From Escherichia phage vB_EcoP_PHB19: DNA of 40,037 nt. Shown here piece by piece: positions 3,484 through 39,985 of this stretch. The notes under the pieces are model-generated. The model did no database searches. It saw only the letters and a list, made by a program, of their open reading frames with translations, and was not told the origin of the DNA. Numbering within the stretch: the first letter of the stretch is position 1; each line of letters opens with the position of its first letter. The stretch lies in sequence record MN481365.1; one strand, written 5' to 3'. The position numbers and the translations under genes were made by a program.

Positions 3484-3747
3484 TAAAGTGTAAATATCGT
3501 CATCAGTTAGACCGTTGTCACCGACTTTCTCTTTGTACTCTTCAAGAGCACCAGCAAGGCCGCCCAAGATGTGAACATCCGGCTGCAACTTACCAATCTG
3601 GAACTTGTGGCGGTCTAACAGTTTGTTGATGGCGTTATAGAGTTGCGGAGTCCGCCGCTCGTCGTTAGATAAATCAGCTAGCATACGCTGAGCCATCGCA
3701 GTGTCCAACATCTCTAAGAACGTGATGAGGCTCTTATCTTTTTCCAT
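3478..3747 (-). CDS. 18: Terminase small subunit (DNA maturase A)
   Basis: Starts MEKDKSLITFLEMLD at the 4th codon of the track ORF; 89 aa as in T7 gp18. Confidence 0.93.
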   Translation of the reverse strand: MEKDKSLITFLEMLDTAMAQRMLADLSNDERRTPQLYNAINKLLDRHKFQIGKLQPDVHILGGLAGALEEYKEKVGDNGLTDDDIYTLQ

Positions 3748-3752
3748 ATGTA

Positions 3753-38608: not shown

Positions 38609-38756
38609 CAGCAGACTCCAAGGCTATTGCCTTGTTGTTTTCGTACAGTTCCTTAAGGTGTGCCATTGCGAGCGACCAATCAAAGCCACAGCGCACCATG
38701 TCACTATAAAACAGTACAGTTTGAGCGGTCAGACCGTATTGCGTATCTTTAGCCAT
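38604..38756 (-). CDS. 0.4: gp0.4 (FtsZ inhibitor in T7)
   Basis: Hand translation [50 protein letters not shown]; start overlaps the ocr stop (TAATG). Confidence 0.8.
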   Translation of the reverse strand: MAKDTQYGLTAQTVLFYSDMVRCGFDWSLAMAHLKELYENNKAIALESAE

Positions 38757-39118
38757 TACTCTTCGCCCTCTTCGTACTCTTCAGACTCTTCGACTTCCTC
38801 AAGATACTCGTTCAGCAAATCTTCAGCGTCTTCCCAAAGGTCGATTGTGAGTTGCTCATAGATACGTGCTTGCAGGCTACGGATTACGTCCTTGGTGTCC
38901 GGCATCAGACCAGAGTCTTCGAACTCAAGGTCAATGCCCTCGCTTGCCATTACACTGAAAACGTCACTGTAATAGTGCGGAACAGCATTATCAGCCGCCA
39001 TATGCACTGCATCGTGCAGGTCATCAGTGTCACGAATGTCATCATAACGGATATTTTCTTTCAGCATTTCGTAAGCGTGATCGAAAACGTTGTTATAAGT
39101 CATGTTAGACATAGCCAT
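38756..39118 (-). CDS. 0.3: Ocr, DNA-mimic anti-restriction protein
   Basis: [36 protein letters not shown]... with acidic C-terminus, near-identical to T7 Ocr. Confidence 0.97.
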
Positions 39119-39164
39119 TGTGCGTTACCTCATAGTGTGTGTGTATAGGTTAGTAGTGCATACC

Positions 39165-39230
39165 ATAAAGGGCATCTTGCGATACCCTTGAGCTATCCGC
39201 TACGTGTGTACACTCAAGAGCCGTTTACCA
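39165..39230 (-). promoter_or_regulatory. RNase III site R0.3
   Basis: Hairpin gctcttgag...ctcaagggtatcgc just upstream of ocr, as in T7. Confidence 0.6.
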
Positions 39231-39640
39231 GATTGTTAAAGAGCGTCTTAGTTTGTGCCTTGATAGGCCAGCTTACGCCAGCCTTGTTTCAATAATCCAA
39301 TACCTCTTTTACATCCCGTAAACTAACACCCAATGCAGAGGCTATAGCTTTAGCCGCACCCTGCTGTATGTGTCTCCTGTTAAGGGAGGGATTACCTTTC
39401 ATGTGTATAAAGTAGTCTACTTTTACTTTATCAGGTAACTGCAAGACCTCTCCTGTCTCCTTATTCCTTTTAAAACAAGGGCAAGAGTATACACCTTTAG
39501 CAAGCTCCCACTCATTTGAGTTAAAGATACTAAAAACTTCCTCAGTGTTTAACTTCTTAATACCAATTAAAGCCATGATAATTCACCTTTTGTCAGTTGA
39601 CCTATCAAGGCACAAACCAAATTGTTAAAGAGCATGTCGG
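39228..39640 (-). mobile_element. Inserted cassette relative to T7: ~20-bp imperfect direct repeats (39228..39244 and 39617..39633) bracketing perfect 16-bp inverted repeats (39252..39267 tttgtgccttgatagg; 39601..39616 cctatcaaggcacaaa) and one ORF
   Basis: In T7 the sequence taagacgctctttaacaatctgg directly follows gaaacctgacc; here that junction is split by a duplicated copy of the site plus the inverted-repeat-flanked cargo. Confidence 0.45.
39289..39576 (-). CDS. Hypothetical early protein (95 aa) with C-terminal helix-turn-helix-like segment, carried by the inserted cassette
   Basis: MALIGIKKLNTEEVFSIFNSNEWELAKGVYSCPCFKRNKETGEVLQLPDKVKVDYFIHMKGNPSLNRRHIQQGAAKAIASALGVSLRDVKEVLDY; AAGGTG Shine-Dalgarno 7 nt upstream of the ATG; same strand as all phage genes; AT-rich relative to flanks. 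Confidence 0.75.
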   Translation of the reverse strand: MALIGIKKLNTEEVFSIFNSNEWELAKGVYSCPCFKRNKETGEVLQLPDKVKVDYFIHMKGNPSLNRRHIQQGAAKAIASALGVSLRDVKEVLDY

Positions 39641-39702: not shown

Positions 39703-39731
39703 ATCTTACAGCTTTTAAAGGAGGCTGTCAA
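39703..39731 (-). promoter_or_regulatory. Early sigma70 promoter (A3 position, variant -35/-10 spacer)
   Basis: Coding strand ttgaca-gcctcctttaaaagctg-taagat followed by gtaccacatgaaacgacagtgag, the downstream context of T7 A3. Confidence 0.7.
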
Positions 39732-39955: not shown

Positions 39956-39985
39956 ATCTTACTGCATGTTACTTCATGTTGTCAA
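39956..39985 (-). promoter_or_regulatory. Early sigma70 promoter A2
   Basis: Coding strand ttgacaacatgaagtaacatgcagtaagat, as T7 A2. Confidence 0.7.

Follow-up and report, generated by a model that had tools for sequence, protein, structure and literature searches.

A one-gene cassette between boxA copies upstream of ocr in Escherichia phage vB_EcoP_PHB19 and its counterparts in SP6-like phages

Between the last early promoter and the ocr leader of Escherichia phage vB_EcoP_PHB19 (sequence record MN481365.1) lies a small gene framed by inverted and direct repeats, and the question raised by this locus is what these repeats represent. An earlier note on the same DNA took them for the ends and the duplicated target of a small transposon-like element. 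Our analysis of the whole stretch of 40,037 nucleotides (the window) leads to a different reading, to which we assign a probability of roughly 70%: the insert would be an expression socket that mimics ribosomal RNA (rrn) operons, combining Nus-factor antitermination with RNase III-type processing, and would be exchanged among phages by recombination at or near a 13-nt motif, boxA.

The window shows a T7-like genome in reverse complement, so that the phage sense strand corresponds to the minus strand of the window; the backbone has ~92% identity to Teseptimavirus isolates, pO111 and EG1 among them. A 389-bp insert separates the A3-like promoter from the ocr leader; the interval between A3 and ocr is 389 bp shorter in vB_Yep_9, WX1 and T7. 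In a collection of 50,697 phage records, which includes the sister phage PHB20 and from which the PHB19 genome itself is absent, 180 records match the flanks and none of them covers the insert. The insertion of about 390 bp relative to T7 described in the earlier note is thus real, and so are the perfect inverted repeats of 16 nt (16/16), with TTTGTGCCTTGATAGG at 39252-39267 and its exact complement at 39601-39616; the pairing reaches 23 contiguous pairs once G.U pairs are counted. The direct repeats (39227-39244 and 39616-39633) are identical at 17 of 18 positions, and their 13-nt core, GCTCTTTAACAAT, occurs exactly twice in the window against 0.17 expected occurrences. The inverted repeats had been placed immediately inside the direct ones, which holds on the right-hand side, where the two abut, but not on the left, where they are 7 nt apart. 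The open reading frame (ORF; 39289-39576, minus strand) is indeed intact, codes for 95 amino acids and has a good ribosome-binding site (AAGGTGA, 6 nt ahead of the ATG), and it is more AT-rich than its surroundings, as had been noted (GC content 0.35-0.41 vs 0.44-0.48 in the flanks). Three TTGACA-type promoters lie upstream of the insert (at 39985, 39878 and 39731, minus strand) and a promoter scan found none within it, which makes the ORF the opening gene of the early transcript, in agreement with its description as the first gene transcribed on DNA entry. The elements of the locus, in the order of transcription, are as follows.

39703..39731, minus strand: A3-equivalent sigma-70 promoter, TTGACA-17-TAAGAT, the last of the three early promoters driving the cassette; aligns with the T7 A3 region
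39621..39633, minus strand: boxA′, GCTCTTTAACAAT, the upstream copy (the left direct repeat of the earlier note), apparently imported with the cassette; identical to the rrnH leader boxA
39598..39620, minus strand: 5′ strand of the putative long-range RNA helix (from pairing and covariation), with its core, the right inverted repeat, at 39601-39616, starting 4 nt after boxA′
39577..39597, minus strand: conserved cassette leader, with the spacer AACTGAC, the Shine–Dalgarno sequence AAGGTGA (39583-39589) and ATTATC before the ATG; the same leader stands ahead of unrelated cargo
39289..39576, minus strand: cargo ORF of 95 aa (from the ORF list, homologues and substitution rates)
39265..39284, minus strand: predicted local hairpin AGGCUGGC-GUAA-GCUGGCCU just past the stop codon, with a GNRA loop and two G.U pairs (from folding and covariation); shares 3 nt with the 3′ strand of the long-range helix
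39248..39270, minus strand: 3′ strand of the putative long-range RNA helix (from pairing and covariation), with its core CCTATCAAGGCACAAA, the left inverted repeat, at 39252-39267
39232..39244, minus strand: native boxA GCTCTTTAACAAT, which belongs to the T7-like early leader and follows the T7-type CTAAGAC; in sense orientation this is the right-hand copy (from leader comparison)
39153..39203, minus strand: R0.3-equivalent local hairpin of the ocr leader, unchanged by the insertion (from folding; aligns with the T7 R0.3 region, reportedly an RNase III site in T7)
38756..39118, minus strand: homologue of ocr (gene 0.3), 120 aa (from the ORF list and flank matches)

The direct repeat and boxA

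The core of the direct repeats is identical at 13 of 13 positions to the boxA of the E. coli rrnH leader, which reads TGCTCTTTAACAATTT. The boxA core GCTCTTTAACAA is matched on the transcribed strand, both window copies are in sense orientation, and both (boxA′ at 39633 and the native boxA at 39244) lie downstream of promoters for host RNA polymerase and upstream of genes to be read through. One copy is present at the equivalent position in T7 and all close relatives. The T7 boxA, located downstream of A1-A3, has been validated genetically, with mutations in it making Gp2, an inhibitor of the host RNA polymerase, dispensable (Savalia 2010, as cited in PMC3709561). Judged by its sequence, the direct repeat appears to consist of two copies of a site that host factors bind, rather than of some anonymous target that was duplicated. 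The context of boxA′ (ACAT upstream, TTTGG downstream) matches SP6-like donors, not T7-like relatives. In the host, boxA is an RNA site to which NusB/NusE bind, rendering E. coli RNA polymerase resistant to termination; by analogy, boxA′ would do the same.

The native leader itself varies in two close relatives of the window, phage 04922B (L002, ~620-800) and pO111 (H20): the segment between the A3-like promoter and boxA has been swapped for a longer unrelated one, and boxA is present as the variant GTTCTTTAACAAT.

A bracket conserved around unrelated genes and its covarying arms

The early operons of SP6-like phages contain two to four boxA copies, all in sense orientation (SP6, UAB_Phi78, ACG-C91 and 30 further loci). 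Within 3-5 nt downstream of each copy a 5′ strand begins, the complement of which lies just upstream of the next boxA. The order of elements in this bracket is boxA, 5′ strand, conserved leader with Shine–Dalgarno sequence, ATG to stop codon, hairpin, 3′ strand and next boxA, and in the type found in the window (class 1) it encloses one small ORF. The 26 distinct cassettes carry cargo of 11 unrelated families, 36 to 95 aa in size, with the leader, the Shine–Dalgarno sequence and the start context TATCATG common to unrelated cargos. In one locus (L016, 3780-4367), two class-1 cassettes with cargo of 70 aa and 54 aa stand in tandem directly before ocr and share the middle boxA, an array-like arrangement. 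The copies found outside the window are all restricted to early operons, beside boxA.

To assess the arms of the bracket we concatenated the flanks of the 26 cassettes into one alignment (A1). To place the 3′ strands we searched for the best complement; all of them occupy one position with respect to the hairpin and the boxA that follows. The long-range helix together with the core of the local hairpin has 93.0% of its cells paired, a percentage biased by this manner of search; sliding the 3′ partners by 1-3 columns brings the figure down to 19-43.5%. Changes on both sides are seen in ten pairs of the helix and hairpin core and in eight pairs of the stem, and the observed covariation score was reached by none of 500 shuffles. 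The local hairpin covaries across the cassettes as well (alignment columns 88/101 and 89/100). Among the cells of stem and hairpin that are not Watson–Crick pairs, G.U combinations outnumber A.C ones by 50 to 5 when read in sense orientation, which points to an RNA on the sense strand, not to a DNA site. The window has 23 contiguous pairs and the other cassettes have 12-22; in the window the extended strands are 333 nt apart, and the 29-nt arms 315 nt. Compensation has occurred multiple times in L033, L017 and L009, as can be seen from their arms when set beside those of the window:

Window: 5′ TTTGTGCCTTGATAGG, 3′ CCTATCAAGGCACAAA
L017: 5′ CTAGTACCTTGGTAGG, 3′ CCTACCAAGGTACTAG
L033: 5′ ACAGTGACTCGATAGG, 3′ CCTATCGAGTCACTGT
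L009: 5′ GGATAGTGTCGTGATAGG, 3′ CCTATCACGACACTATCC

The best-supported reading of the inverted repeats is that they are the two strands of an RNA helix that loops out the ORF; pairing in the mRNA, with a possible RNase III site, had been raised as a side possibility in the earlier note. A search of Rfam with the segment 38600-40037 gave no match.

A second class of long-range helix was observed in SP6-like early operons, where TGCTTAGTGTAACCTATGTATGCCGTGG right after boxA can pair with CCACGGCATACAAGGTTACATTAAGCA 500-950 nt downstream (L016, 2843-2875 with ~3720-3750; likewise L005, L017, L018, L024, L027-L029, L034 and L036). The predicted duplex of ~29 bp (dG about -48 kcal/mol) encloses a block of two to four genes, its 3′ strand sits within a sigma-70-like promoter, TTGACA-17-TACATT, and a compensatory variant, TAAGCC/GGCTTA, occurs in PST_H2. 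On several SP6-like viral contigs of ~43-45 kb (L025 at ~981, L030 at ~7627, L032, L035 and L037), a 3′ strand is followed by the motif GAGAGTTAAGAG(T/C), not by boxA.

Origin of the insert and its junctions

In the SP6-like phages UAB_Phi78 and pSL2, the region around the first early gene, at the left end of the genome, matches the insert, arms included, with an identity of 78% at the DNA level and 73% at the protein level; more distant matches come from PST_H2 and an Edwardsiella phage. The cargo family has two seats, the first early gene on SP6-like contigs of ~43-45 kb and the position directly upstream of ocr on T7-like contigs of ~40 kb. Sequence comparison thus points to a one-gene cassette that is native to SP6-like phages (Molineuxvirinae) and was acquired horizontally, and the idea of a one-gene unit brought in from elsewhere stands in this respect. 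The earlier note had also allowed for the arrangement being ancestral across T7 relatives, i.e. ordinary lineage variation; we regard an origin in the ancestor of the T7 supergroup, followed by loss from most T7-like phages, as highly improbable. The two subfamilies have boxA and ocr in common, K1E-like phages also carry a cassette directly upstream of ocr, and the flanking boxA repeats would allow the cassette to be lost without a scar, which fits its patchy distribution. Against this, the cassette is missing from all 180 matching records of Studiervirinae, including the closest relatives with flank identities of 92-99%, the junctions are of four different types, the GC content is below that of the flanks, and the cargo protein of the T7-like phages is 83-88% identical to the SP6-like copies while the backbones share no DNA match at megablast sensitivity.

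The four junction types of class-1 cassettes located upstream of ocr in T7-like phages come from the window, two metagenomic lineages and K30 (slashes mark the joins):

Window: CCTGACC / GACAT-boxA′-cassette-CACAAA / CTAAGAC-boxA, with the native spacer ahead of the right copy
L009 and L010: native boxA-CTGGTAAATAG / arms-cassette-arms / TAGCTC, with no second boxA and with TAG repeated
L011-L015: boxA on both sides, with a donor-type CCTA spacer
K30 (Przondovirus): a different cargo (54 aa, K1E gp05-like) between two boxA copies, with the donor-type right spacer CCAA; KP32 represents the empty site

At the K30 and L011 loci the sequence is native as far as the left boxA, whereas the spacer ahead of the right boxA is of the donor type, and the junctions look like the products expected from recombination between donor and recipient at boxA. 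The K30 cassette (L038, HM480846, 668-943), located upstream of ocr, is annotated in its record only as 'hypothetical protein'. In L009 and L010 (2432-2900), both T7-like, the 95-aa gene is 95% identical to that of the window, and its insertion point lies 11 nt past the native boxA; the arms, though recoded, are perfectly complementary (18/18), and a 3-bp TAG is found at both junctions. Between L009 and the window the ORFs differ at 12 of 285 positions and the arms at 4 of the 16 core pairs, all of them compensatorily, and this combination of near-identical ORFs with recoded arms suggests that bracket and cargo recombine independently. A double crossover, boxA by boxA, was considered as the origin of the window junctions and rejected, the spacers being the wrong way round.

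A rival view takes the insert for a non-autonomous transposon, akin to a miniature inverted-repeat transposable element with 16-bp terminal inverted repeats and a target duplication of ~20 bp. Perfect inverted repeats flanked by direct repeats are present, the insert of L009 is bounded exactly by the arms with the 3-bp TAG on both sides, and insertions recur across several T7-like lineages. The direct repeat, however, is boxA, which also flanks the native SP6-like cassettes and separates tandem ones, and its left copy in the window is of the donor type rather than a copy of the target. The arms covary with the 50:5 bias toward G.U on the sense strand, there is one copy per genome, neither group of phages provides a transposase, and the only ORF of the insert, that of 95 aa, has no transposase or nuclease signature. 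Target-site duplications usually have sizes far from the 17-24 bp seen here. The likeness to miniature elements or insertion sequences, with inverted repeats inside direct ones, is thus superficial, their defining features being absent, and we reject the transposon reading as largely refuted and very improbable.

Proposed mechanism, counterparts and cargo

The nearest structural counterpart of the bracket is found in the host. In rrnH, boxA is followed after 5 nt by CAGACAATCTGTGTGGGCACT, the partner of which, AGTGCTCACACAGATTGTCTG, lies just after 16S, with a further boxA before 23S; the helix that these two strands form around 16S is the primary RNase III site in rrn. In the model taken from PMC8632103, a complex of Nus factors, SuhB and S4 bound to boxA keeps the 5′ strand close to the RNA exit channel and 'delivers' it to the downstream complement. 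The phage cassettes resemble E. coli rrn in the identical 13-nt boxA, in the placement of the two strands, one starting a few nt past boxA and the other located just beyond the enclosed segment, ahead of the next boxA, and in the small hairpin ahead of the downstream boxA, in a boxB-like position. They differ from it in that the cargo is a protein gene of 36-95 codons with its own Shine–Dalgarno sequence, not rRNA, that the helix is unrelated in sequence to boxC and closes a loop of ~0.2-0.35 kb instead of 1.5 kb, and that the function of the cassette is a proposed one.

From this architecture we infer Nus binding at boxA′, RNase III cleavage, strand delivery and recombination at boxA as parts of a putative mechanism. 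Host RNA polymerase would start at the A promoters and transcribe boxA′, a Nus complex would assemble, and boxA′ with the adjacent 5′ strand would be held at the RNA exit channel. About 350 nt later the 3′ strand would emerge and the helix would form; RNase III would then cut it, leaving a discrete mRNA with both ends still base-paired, and the antiterminated polymerase would run on through the native boxA into ocr. We propose that boxA is identical in otherwise unrelated phages because it is fixed by host factors, and that this identity would supply the short homology for gain of the cassette and for its loss without a scar. Of these components, the T7 boxA, the cutting of T7 early RNA by RNase III and the layout of rrn operons are already known.

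Several points weigh against this reading. The unconstrained minimum free energy (MFE) fold of the full 511-nt transcript lacks the long-range helix, its 5′ strand pairing locally with the start-codon region, and the inner 3 bp of the helix compete with the local GNRA hairpin. Because the whole-transcript fold missed the helix, we rely on the comparative evidence, with the bias in the paired percentage mentioned above, and on a construct in which the ORF was replaced by a 10-nt linker, where the window flanks fold as a continuous 23-bp helix (dG -78.6 kcal/mol, z -5.8); the folding of the early transcript that the earlier note had suggested as a check thus supports the helix in the shortened form and fails to recover it in the full-length one. 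The native CTAAGAC before the right boxA and the donor-type ACAT before the left one imply that at least one join in the window was illegitimate, and the same appears to apply to L009. The RNase III and Nus steps at the cassette itself are inferred by analogy. Finally, the searchable literature on SP6-, K1-5-, K1E- and T7-like phages and Autographiviridae, which did not cover the original SP6 and K1-5 genome papers, yielded no description of multiple boxA sites, of ORF-enclosing long-range helices or of bracket-defined cassette exchange in SP6- and T7-like phages, so that a prior description is possible; nor did it yield experiments on RNase III cleavage of the cassette helix.

In an alternative that we hold to be unlikely, the helix exists but does not serve RNase III as a cleavage site. 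The 5′ strand might pair first with the start-codon region, where UUAUCAUGG resembles the 3′ strand CCUAUCAAGG, and later be displaced by the 3′ strand, so that the helix would act as a switch of translation or stability, or else the closed loop might shield the mRNA ends from RNase E and exonucleases. The MFE fold just mentioned, in which the 5′ strand pairs with the translation initiation region, agrees with a switch, as does the retention of TATCATG before unrelated cargo genes, and occlusion of a Shine–Dalgarno sequence in dependence on boxA is known for suhB (PMC5725501). The kept start context (39568-39616, minus strand, in the window and the equivalent segment in 19 of the 26 cassettes) can pair with the 5′ strand through GAUAGG and UAUCA, duplexes between the arm and the start region having a mean of -8.2 kcal/mol vs -4.6 kcal/mol for shuffled sequences; such an alternative structure could keep the start codon masked up to the synthesis of the 3′ strand or to cleavage by RNase III. 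Cassettes with a GGTAGG arm (70-aa cargo), however, lack a matching start context, so the covariation does not reach the alternative pairing, and the perfect helix, which is 20-23 bp long (29 bp in class 2), fits RNase III, for which duplexes of either size are canonical substrates by length. A switch and RNase III processing are in any case compatible and not mutually exclusive.

Three phage systems invite comparison with the proposed socket. RNase III processes the early mRNAs of T7 at intergenic sites, and the T7 early leader has the same boxA at the same position in the operon, the native element persisting in the window at 39232-39244 and 39153-39203. The RNase III sites of T7 are local hairpins with internal loops, such as R0.3, in contrast to the perfect long-range helix around a whole ORF, with a second boxA, that distinguishes the cassette. 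The PeSL elements of T4-type phages consist of an early promoter and a stem-loop terminator and have been proposed to mediate gene shuffling by recombination between repeats (PMC2839356, PMC4122927). With conserved regulatory motifs repeated between small, variable and mostly orphan early genes, they are the closest conceptual precedent, and the cassettes follow the same pattern in showing one bracket, 11 cargo families and tandem units. Unlike PeSL, the cassette contains no promoter or sense-strand terminator, the class-1 bracket combines an antitermination site with a long-range helix, and the exchange crosses subfamily boundaries. The nutL/N-leader region of lambda likewise unites a Nus-factor site with an RNase III helix in the leader that precedes the first early gene (see the references listed in PMC5725501); lambda differs in its need for N protein and boxB, in the order boxA-boxB and in a helix that is local to the leader.

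What the cassette of the window delivers is a protein with few relatives. The ratio of nonsynonymous to synonymous substitution rates (dN/dS) of 0.13-0.29 against six homologues indicates purifying selection on the ORF. A BFVD entry for a hypothetical protein of Escherichia phage vB_EcoP_PHB19 matches the protein with 100% identity; the family of the protein is tiny, with six clusters at 90% identity, and an exhaustive HMMER search found only three other clusters of ~95 aa (representatives at 50% identity). Pfam, PHROGs, PADLOC and a sequence profile of the PDB gave nothing usable, and an exact-sequence lookup in the contig collection gave no match. Two weak similarities were set aside, one to a 4270-aa protein, P0010 (residues 3303-3350 vs cargo residues 31-78; E 2.5e-4, 25% identity over 48 residues), treated as spurious, and one to the 'CAP REPEAT' 8vd6 (E 5e-4), which spans 20 residues with no stretch passing alone. 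A first AlphaFold2 model, built from 7 sequences, had a predicted local distance difference test score (pLDDT) of 69 and its Foldseek matches were meaningless; with an alignment of 10 sequences the pLDDT rose to 91.5, with a predicted template modelling score (pTM) of 0.76. In the predicted fold, a long beta-hairpin (23-37, 44-59) and a third strand are flanked by a short helix at the N-terminus and another helix at the C-terminus, so that the cargo is probably a compact alpha/beta protein, confidently modelled and without a known relative. The C-terminal helix-turn-helix suggested in the earlier note finds no backing in Pfam, PHROGs or the fold, its CPC pair is not conserved in the family, and the protein described there as basic is only mildly so (14 K/R vs 11 D/E). 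Nine other cargo proteins, when compared with Pfam and PHROGs, matched only families of 'unknown function'. The position of the 95-aa protein as the first product is compatible with a role in host takeover or anti-defence, which is a guess.

What looked like a mini-transposon may thus be evidence of phages copying the antitermination and processing helix of the rRNA operon for single protein genes. A wider and more tentative proposal, which we would not put at even odds, is that T7- and SP6-like phages of enterobacteria share an undescribed portable socket that gives orphan early genes an antiterminated, processed and end-protected first expression; boxA, dictated by NusB/NusE, would be the crossover point that lets probable host-takeover or anti-defence genes hop between subfamilies and be lost without a scar, and the cassette would be the first natural mRNA substrate for the Nus 'delivery' model. 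If the mechanism holds, the decades-old idea of strand delivery by boxA and Nus factors could be tested in a compact (~390 nt) and genetically tractable mRNA system, the shuffling of orphan early genes between T7-like and SP6-like phages would be explained by a host-constrained site of 13-17 nt, and at least 11 first-expressed small proteins marked by the bracket would become candidates for functions in host takeover or anti-defence. The insertion socket upstream of ocr, proven by the phages themselves, would also be usable for engineering T7-like phages.

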